A DNA stretch of 32,000 nucleotides. Origin: Candidatus Thorarchaeota archaeon (GTDB lineage Archaea; Asgardarchaeota; Thorarchaeia; Thorarchaeales; Thorarchaeaceae). The position numbers were made by a program, and so were the translations under genes. Of the stretch, positions 2,141 through 11,606 are shown piece by piece. The notes under the pieces were generated by a model. That model worked only from the letters and a program-made list of their open reading frames with translations. It ran no database searches and was not told the DNA's origin. Position 1 is the first letter of the stretch, and each line of letters starts with the position of its first letter. The DNA is taken from contig SHMX01000005.1 of the NCBI GenBank assembly GCA_008080745.1, forward strand, positions 30,001-62,000, read 5' to 3'.

Positions 2141-2863
2141 ATGGTATTTCAGGTGGTATATGAAATGGCTTTCGGTTTGCTTCATTATCTATTCCTAGTT
2201 TCGGGTGTACTAATAATAGGATGTATTCTGTTTCTCTCTAGACGCTATAGTAATCAGAAAAACACCTTGACCTTGGTATTCACGCTATTTTTGATTTCCT
2301 ATGCAATAATTGCGTTTGCGTATGGATTTAGAGGATTATTCGATCCTCAAACTACACCAGAGATTATCCTCTGGATTTTGACAAATTTGATGTATCCCAT
2401 TATGGTTGTTCCTTTGGCTGTCTTTCTCGCCTATCCTTATCTTCAAGAAAAGATTGGAACCCCTACTGGACTCATAACCCGTATAATTATGATTTTTGCC
2501 TTTCTAGTAGTTGTTTTCAATTGGGGAGTGATTTTCACCTCTGATATCGAGTATACCTACATCGATGTCTTTGGTCTTACTCATTATTCTCTGGTTTCAG
2601 ATTTTGTTCCCTATGCATATTACTTGACCCTCTTTCTAGATATAGTTGTAGCGACTTTTTCAGCAATCTTTTTGGCTATATCATTCAGGAGGGAAACAGA
2701 TTCCGTATACAAACAGAAGGCATTATTCCTCCTTGTCGGTTGGTTGTTAATATCTTATGGACAATTGCTTCTACTGAGTGCAACTCTTGCAATTATTCAT
2801 CCTCTGACTTCAATGAGTGGTGTTATTCTCCTTGTACTTGGAGTTGTACGTAGCGGTTCCTAA
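2141..2863 (+). CDS. Stand-alone 7-transmembrane protein (HisKA_7TM/GPCR-like topology)
   Basis: Seven hydrophobic segments by eye, no cytoplasmic catalytic domain, ends 22 nt before a small GTPase gene. Confidence 0.8.
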   Translation: MVFQVVYEMAFGLLHYLFLVSGVLIIGCILFLSRRYSNQKNTLTLVFTLFLISYAIIAFAYGFRGLFDPQTTPEIILWILTNLMYPIMVVPLAVFLAYPYLQEKIGTPTGLITRIIMIFAFLVVVFNWGVIFTSDIEYTYIDVFGLTHYSLVSDFVPYAYYLTLFLDIVVATFSAIFLAISFRRETDSVYKQKALFLLVGWLLISYGQLLLLSATLAIIHPLTSMSGVILLVLGVVRSGS

Positions 2864-2885
2864 AACGTAATAATATGATTGTACC

Positions 2886-3407
2886 ATGGATGTCAAAGTG
2901 AGAACCAATATGACCTCCAAGATTGTAAAGATGGCATTGGTGGGTGCTGGTGGTGCTGGTAAAACTACCATTGCCTCTCGTCTAATCACAGGTGAATTCA
3001 TTGAAACCCTAATGACAATTGGGATTAACATTGAAACTTGGACATTAACAGATGAGGAGAGCGATTCTGATGTAAAAGTCGCGCTTTTTGATCTTGGAGG
3101 ACAACAACAATTTCGCTTCTTTCAGAAGAGCCTGCTTGCGGGTACCCATGCAGTCATTCTGGTTGTTGATATGACTCGATTAAAGACACTCTTTGAGCTG
3201 GATGATTGGATTAGACTGATTCGACATGTTCCTACGGACATGTGGTTACTCGTTGGAAACAAATGTGATGACAATCCTATGATGACCGAGGAGGACATCA
3301 GAGAAAAAGCTGTGGAACTTGGAGTTCCATATGTCATCCTCAGTGCAAAGACTGGTGAAGGTTTTCAAAAACTGACAGATATCATTATAGACATGATGCG
3401 AAAGTAA
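2886..3407 (+). CDS. Ras-superfamily (Rab/Arf-like) small GTPase
   Basis: G1 GAGGAGKTT, G2 TLMTIG, G3 DLGGQ, G4 NKCD, G5 SAK. An alternative ATG is at 2910. Confidence 0.95.
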   Translation: MDVKVRTNMTSKIVKMALVGAGGAGKTTIASRLITGEFIETLMTIGINIETWTLTDEESDSDVKVALFDLGGQQQFRFFQKSLLAGTHAVILVVDMTRLKTLFELDDWIRLIRHVPTDMWLLVGNKCDDNPMMTEEDIREKAVELGVPYVILSAKTGEGFQKLTDIIIDMMRK

Positions 3408-3493: not shown

Positions 3494-4336
3494 GTGTCTA
3501 AGTCCGAAAAAGAAGTGTATGTGTTTTGTGAACAGTGTAAAAAGAATGTTTTACTGAGAGTACCTCTTGATTCTGATGCGGCAACTCGTGGCGGTCTCAT
3601 GTCGGTGGTATCAGTTCATGGAGATCCACCCCATGCTCTAATGGCATATCTTGACGCACAATTTAGGGTACGTGGTGTTGAATATCCGGCAGCAGCCCAG
3701 ACTGGCGATACTGGTAAAATTGAATCTGTTCCAGAAAGCAAGGTAGAACAATTGGAAGAGAAAGTAGAGCTCGGCATTCCTGCCCTTCTTGGTATGCTTC
3801 ACTCAAAACAAAAGGATGCTATCAAAGCACTGTCCATTATTATGGTCAACCTATTGACTAAGAAACGCATTTTTCTAATTCATGATGAGGAACAAATCGG
3901 CTCTTCGGTCATTTCAGCTCTTCATGATATTGTATCCTCTCAGGAAGAATTGATTACCCTGATCAGTCATGAGATTCTATCTCAGAGCGATTTGAATCCT
4001 TTCTGTGTTTATGATTTACAACAGACCAAATTTATTCACAAAGGGCCTAAGATTGATTCTAAGTATTTTGAGCGTACCCTGGACGATATAACAAAACATG
4101 AGAATCCATATTTTCGATTAAAGAATGAGATGAGCAAAATTGTTTACGCTTTTGAAAAATTACAAGAGATTCTTTCTTCTTTGTCCTCTCCTATTCTCGA
4201 TACAAAATTAGCAATGGATGCATCTATTGATTATGAGCTAATGCCCTTCCTTCTTGAATTGGCCGAGTCGGAGGGCATTGTTGTCCGGTCACTGGTTCAG
4301 AAAGATGGCTTGGGTAGAGCATTACGCAGCATCTAA
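3494..4336 (+). CDS. GTPase-associated protein: N-terminal CxxC/H/H putative Zn domain plus a DENN-like core
   Basis: 280-aa ORF with GTG start. N-terminal C12xxC15..H42..H47. The segment IIMVNLLTKKRIFLIH..IGSSVISALHDIV resembles the cDENN consensus as I recall it. Confidence 0.7.
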   Translation: MSKSEKEVYVFCEQCKKNVLLRVPLDSDAATRGGLMSVVSVHGDPPHALMAYLDAQFRVRGVEYPAAAQTGDTGKIESVPESKVEQLEEKVELGIPALLGMLHSKQKDAIKALSIIMVNLLTKKRIFLIHDEEQIGSSVISALHDIVSSQEELITLISHEILSQSDLNPFCVYDLQQTKFIHKGPKIDSKYFERTLDDITKHENPYFRLKNEMSKIVYAFEKLQEILSSLSSPILDTKLAMDASIDYELMPFLLELAESEGIVVRSLVQKDGLGRALRSI

Positions 4337-4357: not shown

Positions 4358-4975
4358 ATGGTTAACCTTAATAAGGTGGAAACCCAACCTATATTGATGG
4401 AAATGTTAGAGTATGTTATTATTGTACTTGCAGTCGCTCTTTTTGGATTACAACACAGTGGTTTATCAGCACTCTCTGTGAAGACACGCATTATTGATCG
4501 TTGGGGAAAGACTGGTTATTCAAGACTCTACACCATTTCTGCGGGTATCACACTTCTCCTAGCATTTCTTTCGATGCAATTTTGGGACTGGTTCTATTTT
4601 CTATACAGTCCTGTTAATATTTTCACCTTTATCATCGGTTTAGTCTTAATTGTAATTGGAATGATAATTGCGTATATTGCCACAGGGGTGATATCAGTGA
4701 GCACCGTTGCTGATATGAGAACAGATCGAAAGGCAGAACTAGTTACTGATGGTATTTACTCGCGAATTCGTCATCCCTTATATCTAGCTACAATTCTCTT
4801 ATTCTTGGGTCTCGCACTGTTGTACTTTCCTTACTTGGAGGTGTTAGTATTCTCATTTGCTATGATTGGATACACGTTGATTGGGGCATATCTTGAAGAG
4901 AGAAAATTGGTGATTCATTATGGACAGGATTATGAACAATACCGAAAACAAGCTGGTTTCATCTTGCCAAAATGA
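4358..4975 (+). CDS. Isoprenylcysteine carboxyl methyltransferase (ICMT/PEMT/MddA-like) family membrane methyltransferase
   Basis: Multiple TM helices, hallmark LVTDGIYSRIRHPLY motif, EE..L...YG..Y..Y..Q C-terminus. Confidence 0.9.
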   Translation: MVNLNKVETQPILMEMLEYVIIVLAVALFGLQHSGLSALSVKTRIIDRWGKTGYSRLYTISAGITLLLAFLSMQFWDWFYFLYSPVNIFTFIIGLVLIVIGMIIAYIATGVISVSTVADMRTDRKAELVTDGIYSRIRHPLYLATILLFLGLALLYFPYLEVLVFSFAMIGYTLIGAYLEERKLVIHYGQDYEQYRKQAGFILPK

Positions 4976-7832: not shown

Positions 7833-8969
7833 ATGACCGGAAAACGACTCAAGGATTATCTGTCCCTTTTAATCGCATTACAGAATAATCCATTTGGGAC
7901 TACAGATGAACTTTCCGATGAATCCGATATATCCAAACCCACAGTAATAAAGCGTCTTCGTGTGCTACAGGGTGCAGAACCTATTGTTCCAGAAACCAGT
8001 CCGAAAAAATACTTTACAGTCGAGCCAATTCTGGATTATAGTACATTGGGCCTTGAACCAGTTGATATTCTTGCAGAAACTAAGACTCTTGATGGTGTAA
8101 AGGCTTTAGAGCAAATTGCACTTGCACATCCCTATACTGTTTACCGCAGTAGGTGTTTTGGTTCTCCCAATGGGATACTACTGCAATTTCGAACCCCGCT
8201 TGATACTAGAAAGAAAATCGAAGAATTGTTCGAATCGTTATGGGATCGAGATATTTTACTTAACTATCAGATACTCCCAACCAATAATTCAATTGTTCGT
8301 TATACATCTATGCAGCTAAAGGGGTGGGATGCCAACGATGCAAGATGGGAATTTGATTGGAAGACATGGTTCAATTCACCGACCAAGAAAACCCTTGAAC
8401 CGCTTCCCGAATCTGAGCCAGGGAAATCTTTGGAATGGATGACGAAAAATGATCTTCATATCATTCGAGAGCTGATGATAGACACGAGAAGAAAAAATAC
8501 TGAAATTATAGATGAATTAGAATCGAGAGGTATTAGCTTTACGCCTCAGACTTTTGGTCGTCATCTTCAGATAATCAAAGATGAGTGTATTCGAGGCTAT
8601 CGTGTGGTGATTGCACCCGAGCCTTTCGATGTGCTCAATAACATACTAGTTATAGGAAAATCCGAACAATCTCATCTTGAAAAACTGGTTGCTAAGACTC
8701 AATTTCGGGACTTTCCTTTTGAGTCTACGATACGAATTGCTGATGAGAACCTATTCTGGTTTGTCCGGTTAAATCAACATCATATCTCACCATTTTTGAA
8801 TGGCCTATTCGATACTCTCAAAGAAACAAAGATTTGCTTTTTGGACTATGAACACTCATACCTCTACAATATCTGGCCTGATGCTTTTGATGAAGATAAA
8901 AAAGAGTGGCGTGCTGATGACGCCTTTTTACTTGACAGAGTTCTCTCAAGTTTGAAGAATCTTCACTAA
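7833..8969 (+). CDS. Tandem Lrp/AsnC-like winged-helix transcriptional regulator
   Basis: HTH1 (TTDELSDESDISKPTVIKRLRVL) and HTH2 (DLHIIRELMIDTRR..TFGRHLQII..IRGYRVVI), each followed by an alpha/beta effector-like domain. The ATG at 7833 is preferred over the GTG at 7809. Confidence 0.8.
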   Translation: MTGKRLKDYLSLLIALQNNPFGTTDELSDESDISKPTVIKRLRVLQGAEPIVPETSPKKYFTVEPILDYSTLGLEPVDILAETKTLDGVKALEQIALAHPYTVYRSRCFGSPNGILLQFRTPLDTRKKIEELFESLWDRDILLNYQILPTNNSIVRYTSMQLKGWDANDARWEFDWKTWFNSPTKKTLEPLPESEPGKSLEWMTKNDLHIIRELMIDTRRKNTEIIDELESRGISFTPQTFGRHLQIIKDECIRGYRVVIAPEPFDVLNNILVIGKSEQSHLEKLVAKTQFRDFPFESTIRIADENLFWFVRLNQHHISPFLNGLFDTLKETKICFLDYEHSYLYNIWPDAFDEDKKEWRADDAFLLDRVLSSLKNLH

Positions 8970-10018
8970 CTTGGACCTTTGGTCACTTTGAAGACAGATA
9001 TGGGAGTAGCAGTTTCAAAAGCAATAGCTCCTGATTCCATCGCCCACTCTTCCATGTCGTCCTTGGAAAAGAATCCATGGACACCCTCTACGACTTTGAA
9101 ATGTGCCTCATTGTACATGTTTGTATCTGGGTAAAAGTTCTGTGTACCAAATAGGAAACCGCCGGGTTTCAGTACTCGCATCATCTCCGTAATCGCAAGT
9201 TTCGGCTCAGTCCAATGCAATACTTGCGAGGCAAATACGATATCAAAGGATTCATCCTCATAGGGAATCCGTTCAGCATATCCTGGACGAAATTCTACCG
9301 GGAACTCATTCACGGTATCCTTGATACTTAGATCATGTCCATTATACTCTGAAACCATTTGAGGGAATTCTTCGCTTGCTATACGGAGAAGTTTCTCATT
9401 TGGGTCAATACCTACTATCTGCATGGGGGACCCAGGGAAGAAAAAGTCGTTCTCATAGTAGTATGACCAAATTGCGGCTGTCCCCCGACCGTTTCCGGAA
9501 CCAACATCTAAGAATCTCACTGGTTCCTTTAGGGCGTCGGAAAAGGCAAAAGCGGCACGTCTGATTTGTTCATAGAGTTTGTTCGATAAAGCGTCATCCC
9601 AGTTGAATAAATTCAACCCTCCAGTAAACTGTAAGCATCGTCCTCTTAATCTATCTGGAATTGCTCTTGCATGGTCAACCCACAATTCTCTCATAGCGTC
9701 ATCAAAACAACTGGGACATGTCCAATCAAATTCAATGGGCCCCTCCATGAAAAGTTGACCATCATTTTCTTGAATAACCTCGTCTTCAATCAATATACCA
9801 ATTAGGTATTCTAAGAAATCTATCTCAGTATATCTGAACTCTGCAGCAATCTGCATGAGGGTTCGTGGAGACTGTAAATAATCGAACCAACCCTCATTTC
9901 TTAGCACTCCAAGAATATTGCCTCTGAAGAAGCTGTCAATATCCTTTCGGAGCTTTGATACATTTAATCCAAGTTTCATCAATTCTTTCCATGCTCTCAT
10001 CTTTCTTATCATTGTCAA
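8966..10018 (-). CDS. Class I SAM-dependent methyltransferase with an N-terminal helical/wHTH-like domain
   Basis: FLDVGSGNG, GIDPN, AERIPYEDESFDIV and RVLKPGG motifs. Confidence 0.92.
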   Translation of the reverse strand: MTMIRKMRAWKELMKLGLNVSKLRKDIDSFFRGNILGVLRNEGWFDYLQSPRTLMQIAAEFRYTEIDFLEYLIGILIEDEVIQENDGQLFMEGPIEFDWTCPSCFDDAMRELWVDHARAIPDRLRGRCLQFTGGLNLFNWDDALSNKLYEQIRRAAFAFSDALKEPVRFLDVGSGNGRGTAAIWSYYYENDFFFPGSPMQIVGIDPNEKLLRIASEEFPQMVSEYNGHDLSIKDTVNEFPVEFRPGYAERIPYEDESFDIVFASQVLHWTEPKLAITEMMRVLKPGGFLFGTQNFYPDTNMYNEAHFKVVEGVHGFFSKDDMEEWAMESGAIAFETATPISVFKVTKGPS

Positions 10019-10027
10019 TCACTCCTG

Positions 10028-10942
10028 TTATCCAAGAAGTCCTCTCCTCTCAACGTGTTCCAGCATATCGAACACTTTCTGTATTCTCCCAATCTGCCCT
10101 TGTTCTAAGAGGTCGATTACACTCGCTTTTCCACTGAGAAGTGGGACCAGAATCTCTTCTGCAAAATCGAATTTTCGTTCTACACGATCAACTATGGAAG
10201 GTATCCGGGGAATGTACTGGAAGTCGATTTTTGAAAAAAGGCGGTCATCCCCAACTAGCTTCAAAAGAACTGACGAATCAATCTTAGGGTTGACCGCAAT
10301 AGCGTGCAGACCAAGGACAAGGAGTCTTTTGTCGGGGATGGCATCTCGATGTGGTTCTCTTATTGTTTCCTTAAGCAAAGTACTCAGAGAACCAAAAGCT
10401 GCGGGGCCTTTGAGTGCACCACAGGCTATTCTTGAGCCCTTTGTCCACACACGTAGATCCTGGTCAGCGATGGTGAAATTCAATTCATCAGGGAGACTCT
10501 CATAGACCCTCTCTGCCTCCTCAACTCGCTGTGCCAGAAGTCTTGCAAGCTCAAGTATTCTTACCTCGGAACTTGTTACACCTTCTAATACCCATGAGTC
10601 GTCTCTATCCATGATAAAGACACAATCGAAAAATGGATGTGATTCCAACGTAGCAGGCTTTTGAGATACTAACCAGAGTTGTTGCTCTGCTTTTTCTCCT
10701 TTAACCTGTTCAACAAAAGCGTCTTTATGTCCGCGAAAGAGATCCATATGATCTACGATTATTGTGTTCACGTGACGCTCTGAACCAACCATATGCGAAA
10801 CTCTGTAGGTGGTCAGTTGCATACCAAAGAATTTCTCATGTGGCGTTTTGGATTCGAAGGTGGTGGGATCTCTAGGATTGAAACTCACCCTTTCATTACA
10901 CACAGCACATTGGAATGTGGATACCTGTTTTGTTTGACTCAT
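10028..10942 (-). CDS. GTPase-associated protein: N-terminal CxxC/H/H putative Zn domain plus a possible longin/roadblock-like domain
   Basis: 304-aa ORF 10 nt downstream of a GTPase. C12xxC15..H50..H57..D64..R70G71. The central beta-beta-alpha-beta-beta-alpha pattern is assigned by inference. Confidence 0.7.
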   Translation of the reverse strand: MSQTKQVSTFQCAVCNERVSFNPRDPTTFESKTPHEKFFGMQLTTYRVSHMVGSERHVNTIIVDHMDLFRGHKDAFVEQVKGEKAEQQLWLVSQKPATLESHPFFDCVFIMDRDDSWVLEGVTSSEVRILELARLLAQRVEEAERVYESLPDELNFTIADQDLRVWTKGSRIACGALKGPAAFGSLSTLLKETIREPHRDAIPDKRLLVLGLHAIAVNPKIDSSVLLKLVGDDRLFSKIDFQYIPRIPSIVDRVERKFDFAEEILVPLLSGKASVIDLLEQGQIGRIQKVFDMLEHVERRGLLG

Positions 10943-10952
10943 TCCTTATCCC

Positions 10953-11606
10953 TCACCTGTTTGTGAATAGGTTGTTTACCAGCCACTGTCTTACCTCATC
11001 TAGTCCTGAGCCAGTTAAGCAGCTAGTTTCAAAGTATGATACAATCTGTGGATTGCTCTGCAATACAGCTTCAATCAGACCCTTGTCCATCGAACAATTC
11101 AAGTCACACTTGTTTCTAATCAGAACAAAATCGGGTGTATCGAATCGAGTTTGGGACACATAGTATCCGGTCAATAGATCCACCCATTCTGTTAGATCAA
11201 TCAGAGATTGAATATTATCACTGGCGAAAATAAGCAGGATTACATCGACTCCGCCAAGAGCAGTTCGACTGATATCCTTGAGTGCATGAATTGGCGAATT
11301 GAGTTGACCTGCGATGTCGACCATTTGACACAGCCCTTCAATATCCTCGTCAACAAGGTCTGCTGCAGGAATGACTTCCAAATCTACAAAGAGCGTCCGG
11401 TGGTATTCCGCTTCGTCCTTAAGAAGCTCCTTTAAGCTCTTTCTCTCTCTCAACACGGTCAGCAGACTAGACTTGCCTACGGCCCCAGACCCTGCCATCA
11501 GAATCTTTCGTATTCCTGAATGGAGTTTTATTCTTTCAATTAGGCTTCGTGATGTCTCAGGTTCGGTTTCTTTGGTCTTCAATTCGCTCGTACTCATTGC
11601 TATCAC
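10953..11606 (-). CDS. Ras-superfamily small GTPase (divergent)
   Basis: G1 GSGAVGKSS, G3 DIAGQ, G4 NKCD, G5-like ETSCL. An alternative ATG is at 11597. Confidence 0.92.
   Translation of the reverse strand: MIAMSTSELKTKETEPETSRSLIERIKLHSGIRKILMAGSGAVGKSSLLTVLRERKSLKELLKDEAEYHRTLFVDLEVIPAADLVDEDIEGLCQMVDIAGQLNSPIHALKDISRTALGGVDVILLIFASDNIQSLIDLTEWVDLLTGYYVSQTRFDTPDFVLIRNKCDLNCSMDKGLIEAVLQSNPQIVSYFETSCLTGSGLDEVRQWLVNNLFTNR

Follow-up and report, generated by a model that had tools for sequence, protein, structure and literature searches.

Asgard archaea encode many small GTPases together with eukaryote-like regulators, but for very few of these switches, to our knowledge, can one point to a specific regulator or to a partner in the membrane. 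The DENN fold is that of known eukaryotic guanine nucleotide exchange factors (GEFs) for Rab GTPases. Here we describe a cassette from a Candidatus Thorarchaeota genome (3.16 Mb, 98% complete) in which a stand-alone seven-transmembrane (7TM) protein, a small Rab-like GTPase and a protein with a predicted DENN fold are encoded in succession within a 32,000-nucleotide stretch, hereafter the window (G000:C5:30001-62000). The pairing of a GTPase with a DENN protein is already known in Asgard archaea. Specifically, an operon has been described that encodes a Rab-like GTPase and a DENN protein along with a LAMTOR1-like Roadblock protein, and a role as a GEF module was put forward for the GTPase-DENN pair (Liu et al., preprint 10.1101/2020.10.19.343400). 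The present locus resembles that operon in placing a Rab-like GTPase gene next to a DENN-fold gene, and it differs in having no Roadblock/LAMTOR1-like gene and in having a stand-alone 7TM gene as its third member. A 7TM protein has been connected to DENN proteins elsewhere, as PQLC2 recruits the C9orf72-SMCR8-WDR41 complex to lysosomes (PMC7039192).

The proteins encoded at 2141-2863, 2886-3407 and 3494-4336 are referred to as TM7, the GTPase and P280, respectively. With coordinates given throughout as positions in the window, the cassette comprises the following features:

2141..2863, + strand: TM7; longest open reading frame (ORF) of 240 residues; stand-alone membrane protein of seven helices with its N-terminus outside and its C-terminus inside; remotely HisKA_7TM-like
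2886..3407, + strand: Rab-like small GTPase; 173 residues; G1-G5 motifs and catalytic Gln73 intact
3494..4336, + strand: P280; 280 residues; predicted DENN fold; most constant neighbour of TM7
3494..3691, + strand: N-terminal beta module of P280; five strands; invariant C12, C15, H42 and H47; presumed zinc site
3758..4303, + strand: predicted DENN core of P280, residues 89-270; alpha/beta part, then helical part
4301..4333, + strand: C-terminal tail of P280, KDGLGRALRSI; in all 14 TM7-linked P280s; candidate docking element

With respect to gene neighbourhood, the steady companion of TM7 was found to be P280. Among the 21 TM7 loci that could be judged, on which all linkage counts rest, P280 lies directly downstream of TM7 on the same strand in 16, with gaps ranging from an overlap to about 236 nucleotides, and this pairing spans two deep paralogous TM7 clades and several gene orders. 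The GTPase is present at seven of the loci, each of which also carries P280; six are arranged TM7-GTPase-P280 and one GTPase-TM7-P280, and no locus among the 21 combines TM7 and the GTPase without P280. A preliminary description of this DNA had viewed TM7 and the GTPase as a possible GPCR-like receptor-switch pair in which the GTPase may be the output. An orthologous GTPase does recur beside TM7, but at only a minority of loci, and the pair as drawn left out P280; moreover, none of the analyses made here points to TM7 as a GEF, and a candidate exchange factor is already in the cassette because P280 has the predicted fold of known Rab GEFs. The same genome contains a second cassette (L002, G000:C3:118623-122294, ORFs 1498-2163 and 660-1517, both on the - strand) that lacks a GTPase; its 7TM gene, the product of which is 29% identical to TM7, shares about 20 nucleotides with the beginning of a P280 paralogue. 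Within the larger clade of the TM7 tree, loci with the GTPase occur at scattered positions and, because the GTPases themselves are orthologous, an ancestral TM7-GTPase-P280 cassette with repeated later loss of the GTPase is suggested. No match to the Roadblock family was found among the genes neighbouring the cassette.

The TM7 family itself is narrowly distributed, occurring in 16 of the 86 genomes of one Asgard family. Searches of 400 Asgard genomes with a single protein and with a profile did not find it outside that family; four marginal, partial profile matches beyond the family (E 4e-5 to 1e-3) were not counted as TM7. An exhaustive search of 1.84 billion representative sequences returned only 19 matches, and the sole close database relative of TM7 carries the name Lokiarchaeota. 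Split 7TM copies, each in two reading frames, were also seen at L017/L036 (G335:C51) and L022 (G325:C125:6559-7241); these are decaying genes or assembly errors, and in G325 the broken copy directly follows an intact TM7-P280 pair.

A second feature that connects P280 to TM7 is the P280 C-terminus. The tail DGLGRAxRS[IF] terminates all 14 TM7-linked P280s and is lacking in all 13 TM7-free P280s, several of which end in poly-Lys. The genes for the latter mostly lie directly after msrA, with one after a GTPase gene (loci L039-L055; for example L046, 1444-2295 on the - strand, and L047, 1498-2340 on the + strand), and their products form one clade with support of 100/99. The Lys runs of these TM7-free proteins could bind membranes directly.

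As to a physical complex, ESMFold2 was run on the three chains with TM7 scored as the partner; the score was 0.50, compared with 0.01 for the best of three controls, a result that lends weak support to an interaction. The runs showed at least 76% contact agreement and a predicted local distance difference test (pLDDT) value of at least 80 for the partner. In calibration, 58 of 80 solved complexes and 2 of 110 mismatched pairs attained the mark, and at scores of 0.60 or below it was attained by only 7 of the 80 solved complexes as well as by both passing mismatches. The control in which the GTPase was kept and P280 was swapped scored 0.01, which implies that the scored TM7 interface involves P280 and is not evidence against a TM7-GTPase contact.

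The model of P280 (pLDDT 78) consists of a five-strand N-terminal module, a disordered linker at residues 67-91, an alpha/beta part and a helical part. Residues 89-270 superimpose on DENND10 with Z 13.0 and a root-mean-square deviation (rmsd) of 3.9 Å over 161 residues. Matches to FLCN, C9orf72, SMCR8 and DENND1A/B follow at Z 10-10.8, and the next unrelated fold is found at Z 6.6. The best Foldseek matches were the GEF domains of DENND1A/B bound to Rab35, and the neighbours of P280 among predicted structures comprise Asgard proteins, a Heimdall folliculin-like cluster and eukaryotic DENN proteins. At the sequence level P280 matched neither Pfam DENN, uDENN and dDENN nor any Pfam family at E up to 0.1. 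Judged from its structural model, P280 has a cDENN plus dDENN fold.

The N-terminal module of P280, with five strands, one short helix and a Cys2His2 site, appears not to be a recognised longin domain. It contains an invariant arginine, R60, within a VRG motif, and a GP motif ahead of strand 2 of the kind described in PMC12290439 was not seen in it. This Cys2His2 beta module is widespread in the phylum, where it also occurs alone, in soluble Asgard proteins of 90-360 residues. A zinc-module protein was located beside a small GTPase in six of eight sampled Asgard loci; in none of the eight was the module fused to a membrane protein, all of the zinc-module proteins being soluble. Loci with the module include L076 and L079-L083; in L083 (G000:C6:12500-16500), for example, the ORFs are 1267-1821 and 1718-2317, both on the - strand.

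Turning to TM7, the 240-residue product of ORF 2141-2863 was found by hydropathy scan to contain seven hydrophobic segments, in agreement with the preliminary description. An AlphaFold2 model built from an alignment of 18 relatives (pLDDT 92.4, predicted template modelling score 0.86) places helices at residues 13-39, 42-66, 72-103, 108-133, 159-184, 188-212 and 216-236, with a beta-hairpin at 135-152 in the loop between helices 4 and 5. Averaged over the 18 relatives, loops 1-2, 3-4 and 5-6 together with the C-terminus carry 10.3 Lys plus Arg residues, compared with 1.7 on the opposite side. By the positive-inside count, therefore, the N-terminus is outside, the C-terminus is inside and the acidic hairpin between helices 4 and 5 is outside. 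This agrees with the N-out topology and with the extracellular type of loop that had been read from the sequence. The chain ends four residues past the seventh helix and has no output domain, and all credible relatives from the database search are of 190-235 residues, so that the earlier reading of TM7 as a stand-alone protein stands as well. No longer, fused form of the family scored in a search for such forms, which is weak evidence.

The nine invariant positions of the TM7 family are Y36, L45, F47, G65, P99, E185, L197, G200 and P221. Since TM7 belongs to a conserved family with these invariant positions and identities of 22-88%, its gene is real. The best-conserved regions are cytoplasmic loop 5-6 (RETDPFYKxRAL in the family; RRETDSVYKQK, residues 183-193, in the TM7 of the window), the sixth helix and loop 1-2. 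Because the relatives and database copies begin at M9 (MAFG...), the true start of TM7 is probably at 2165, giving a protein of 232 residues.

In terms of fold, solved structures place G-protein-coupled receptors (GPCRs) at the top of the list for TM7. In Foldseek these matches have E values of about 1e-3, template modelling (TM) scores of 0.45-0.61 and rmsd values of 6-9 Å. In a comparison by VIA they reach Z 13-15.6 at 4-5 Å, values that helical bundles easily attain, and they are followed without a gap by the alkaline ceramidase ACER3 (Z 12.6), microbial rhodopsins (about 12) and AdipoR2 (11.6). Among predicted structures the best matches are 7TMR-DISM_7TM and HisKA_7TM modules (TM scores of 0.70-0.75 and rmsd values of 3.2-3.7 Å over about 216 residues), fused to histidine kinase or GGDEF domains; an atlas comparison gave TM scores of 0.73-0.75 to HisKA_7TM. 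The GPCR likeness is thus that of a general seven-helix bundle, since ACER3, rhodopsins and AdipoR2 score close behind and the sensor modules fit better. None of the GPCR sequence families of Pfam that were searched (7tm_1, 7tm_2, 7tm_3, Frizzled and others) was found in TM7 or its 18 relatives at E up to 10.

Kinship with HisKA_7TM extends to sequence profiles. Aligned with hhalign to 13 Asgard HisKA_7TM domains, the TM7 family profile gave a probability of 88.7% and E 2.6e-6 over 190 columns covering the second to seventh helices. Three of the 18 relatives also match the Pfam HisKA_7TM model (best E 2.1e-5). The TM7 of the window does not match that model, and nor does any protein when the model is run against its own genome; the kinship is therefore visible only at the profile-profile and structure levels. 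TM7 is, then, a stand-alone protein remotely related to the HisKA_7TM sensor module, and of the GPCR-like character first ascribed to it the general shape holds, although GPCRs are not clearly set apart from other bundles. Two further assignments were rejected: a microbial rhodopsin, as helix 7 (216-236) contains no Lys and the relatives do not conserve a Lys at the corresponding position, and a hydrolase of the PAQR or alkaline ceramidase type, as no His or Asp within the helices is invariant.

The remaining member of the cassette is an intact GTPase 22 nucleotides downstream of TM7, as had been described, and the spacer between the two genes is free of T-runs. Its motifs are complete (GAGGAGKT, T44, DLGGQ, NKCD and SAK) and invariant over eight orthologues, and it matches Pfam Ras with E 7e-23. 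The best solved matches of its profile are Sec4, a Thorarchaeota Rab, Rab35, Rab1 and Rab6. The GTPases of the various cassettes are orthologous, with identities of 47-83%. Neither this protein, which ends ...IIIDMMRK, nor any orthologue has a C-terminal Cys for prenylation, and an obvious lipid anchor is lacking on both the GTPase and P280. The nearest relatives within the genome are three tandem paralogues at G000:C1:529278-531227 (L071-L073; 41-46% identity), and the genome has at least 18 small-GTPase matches in all.

Building from the observed folds, topology, gene linkage and tail correlation, we infer a mechanism in which TM7 would bind P280, P280 would act on the GTPase and something might be sensed. 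TM7 would be a lineage-specific, stand-alone descendant of a prokaryotic HisKA_7TM-type sensor module and would supply the membrane component of a small-GTPase module with three parts. With its cytoplasmic face TM7 would bind P280, possibly via the conserved C-terminal tail of the latter, and P280 in turn would regulate the Rab-like GTPase encoded between them, being more probably its exchange factor than its GTPase-activating protein (GAP). As neither soluble protein shows a lipid anchor, TM7 could serve to place P280, and through P280 the GTPase, at the membrane, and it may also tie the module to something sensed in or outside the membrane. On balance we mildly favour this assignment, in which TM7 docks the DENN regulator of a Rab-like GTPase at the membrane and might also act as a sensor. 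A more demanding version, in which TM7 is a true receptor whose ligand or membrane state alters the cytoplasmic face, engages the P280 tail and switches exchange on the GTPase, strikes us as rather doubtful. Were it true, archaeal relatives of eukaryotes would possess a receptor-to-GEF-to-small-GTPase pathway in which a sensor module of prokaryotic type is combined with GTPase regulators of eukaryotic type.

Other explanations place the activity elsewhere. TM7 could itself be a GPCR-like exchange factor acting directly on the co-transcribed GTPase, an idea to which the short spacer without a T-run, the seven helices with N-out topology, the GPCRs among solved-structure matches, the adjacency of an orthologous GTPase in a third of the loci and the absence of a membrane anchor on the GTPase would all lend themselves. 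Two thirds of the TM7 loci, including the paralogous cassette of the same genome, nonetheless lack a GTPase, and TM7 and the GTPase never occur together without P280, a protein with the predicted fold of Rab GEFs. Because the GTPase is so often absent and P280 is always present with it, and given that the GPCR likeness is unspecific, that prokaryotic sensor modules fit better and that GPCR Pfam families are unmatched, we consider direct exchange by TM7 very improbable. If TM7 instead docks P280, the latter could still be a GAP or an effector or adaptor of the GTPase, in the manner of FLCN-FNIP or C9orf72-SMCR8. P280 has FLCN, SMCR8 and C9orf72 among its best structural matches (Z 10-10.8), the invariant R60 lies in its N-terminal module, and the DENN proteins FLCN and SMCR8 act in documented GAP complexes (PMC12290439). 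That module, however, is a Cys2His2 beta module that is not recognised as a longin domain and has no GP motif, the best Foldseek matches are Rab35-bound GEF domains of DENND1A/B, and the GTPase retains its own catalytic Gln73. A GAP or effector role is on this evidence unlikely.

It is also conceivable that TM7 has an unrelated membrane function, whether in transport, in lipid hydrolysis or as a structural element, and that adjacency reflects co-regulation or inheritance and not physical coupling. Some TM7 genes do stand alone and two TM7 genomes have no full-length P280 match, seven-helix hydrolases and pumps score only slightly under GPCRs in the fold search, and even HisKA_7TM is without a known function. 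Set against this, the TM7-P280 pair persists through several gene orders and in each of two deep paralogous clades, and the P280 tail is restricted to TM7-linked copies. The complex prediction (0.50 against a best control of 0.01) adds weak support, TM7 has neither the invariant helix His/Asp set of PAQR proteins and ceramidases nor the helix-7 Lys of rhodopsins, and its nearest predicted structures are kinase and cyclase sensor modules, not transporters. An unrelated function accordingly appears quite unlikely.

Several observations nevertheless weigh against TM7 as a dock for P280. At least four TM7 genes have no adjoining P280, and full-length P280 was unmatched in two TM7 genomes (G332, 93% complete, and G347, 85% complete); on account of these orphan genes and genomes, TM7 may work without P280. 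Since the TM7-free P280s form one clade, the tail correlation amounts to a single evolutionary event. Cytoplasmic loop 5-6 is kept in orphan TM7s and aligns to a conserved stretch of HisKA_7TM, and its conservation may be structural rather than that of a P280 docking site. With respect to the complex prediction, the score falls in the weak band and its contacts are unreported, and the job departed from the calibration in its use of three chains and of alignments made for it. The fold alone, as modelled, would not separate a GEF from a GAP in the case of P280. Finally, the 86-nucleotide spacer between the GTPase and P280 genes includes a T5 run as well as an A/T-rich stretch, and a separate promoter for P280 is therefore possible.

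The cassette is flanked by the following genes:

4358-4975, + strand: ICMT/PEMT-like membrane methyltransferase, 21 nucleotides after P280
1402-1983, - strand: upstream gene for 193 residues, in divergent orientation; conserved within the genus only
232-1176, - strand: ordinary archaeal transcription factor B gene with TFIIB repeats and a zinc ribbon, upstream of the cassette

The first two of these were rejected as cassette members, the methyltransferase gene because it adjoins P280 in this genus only, and the 193-residue gene because it is divergent and conserved only inside the genus. The methyltransferase is of the ICMT/PEMT-like type, yet neither the GTPase nor P280 has a terminal Cys motif. 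A second GTPase string of similar logic, with gaps of about 10 nucleotides and no 7TM gene, was seen on the - strand at 8966-11606 of the window. In order, it consists of a divergent Ras-family GTPase (10953-11606), a 304-residue partner (10028-10942) that begins with a CxxC...H...H pattern and has no Pfam match, and a class I-type methyltransferase-like ORF (8966-10018).

Taken together, these genes assign to one switch, the Rab-like GTPase, both a candidate exchange factor with a DENN fold and a dedicated membrane protein of seven helices, so that all three parts can be named. The C-terminal tail of P280 provides a concrete element for mutation, and parts this small should suit reconstitution. 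In the cassette a prokaryotic 7TM sensor module also stands with GTPase machinery instead of the kinase output that it usually has, a finding relevant to how GTPase signalling coupled to membranes was put together before eukaryotes. In the literature collection that was searched, neither a 7TM protein partnering Asgard DENN/GTPase operons nor a stand-alone HisKA_7TM-like partner with a partner-specific DENN tail was found.

Relative to the Asgard operon of Liu et al., the further differences are that the DENN protein here carries an N-terminal Cys2His2 module and a TM7-specific tail, and that the TM7 family is confined to one Asgard family. With HisKA_7TM (PF16927) and 7TMR-DISM_7TM (PF07695), TM7 shares seven helices and an N-out topology; the former is linked to it by remote profile homology, and both supply its best predicted-structure matches. 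Unlike these modules, TM7 has no fused kinase or cyclase, and its gene partners encode a DENN protein and a small GTPase. Eukaryotic GPCRs are likewise N-out and C-in with seven helices and are the top solved-structure matches, but no sequence-family match connects them to TM7, the partner of which is a monomeric Rab-like GTPase with a DENN regulator and not a heterotrimeric G protein.

In terms of mechanism, the nearest analogy known to us is PQLC2, a seven-helix membrane protein that acts as a receptor-like dock for a DENN complex regulating small GTPases. PQLC2 is, however, a PQ-loop transporter of another 7TM family and binds through a loop of WDR41, so that the analogy is one of mechanism only. 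Among prokaryotes, the actinobacterial conservon CvnA-D (PMC13621833, PMC13343842) also combines in one operon a membrane sensor, a small Ras-like GTPase and a presumed GEF and GAP. Its sensor is histidine-kinase-like and its regulators are Roadblock/MglB and DUF742 proteins; it belongs to another domain of life and lacks both the DENN fold and the stand-alone 7TM protein of the archaeal cassette. Among prokaryotic systems, the conservon is the nearest mechanistic analogy known to us for the TM7-GTPase-P280 cassette.

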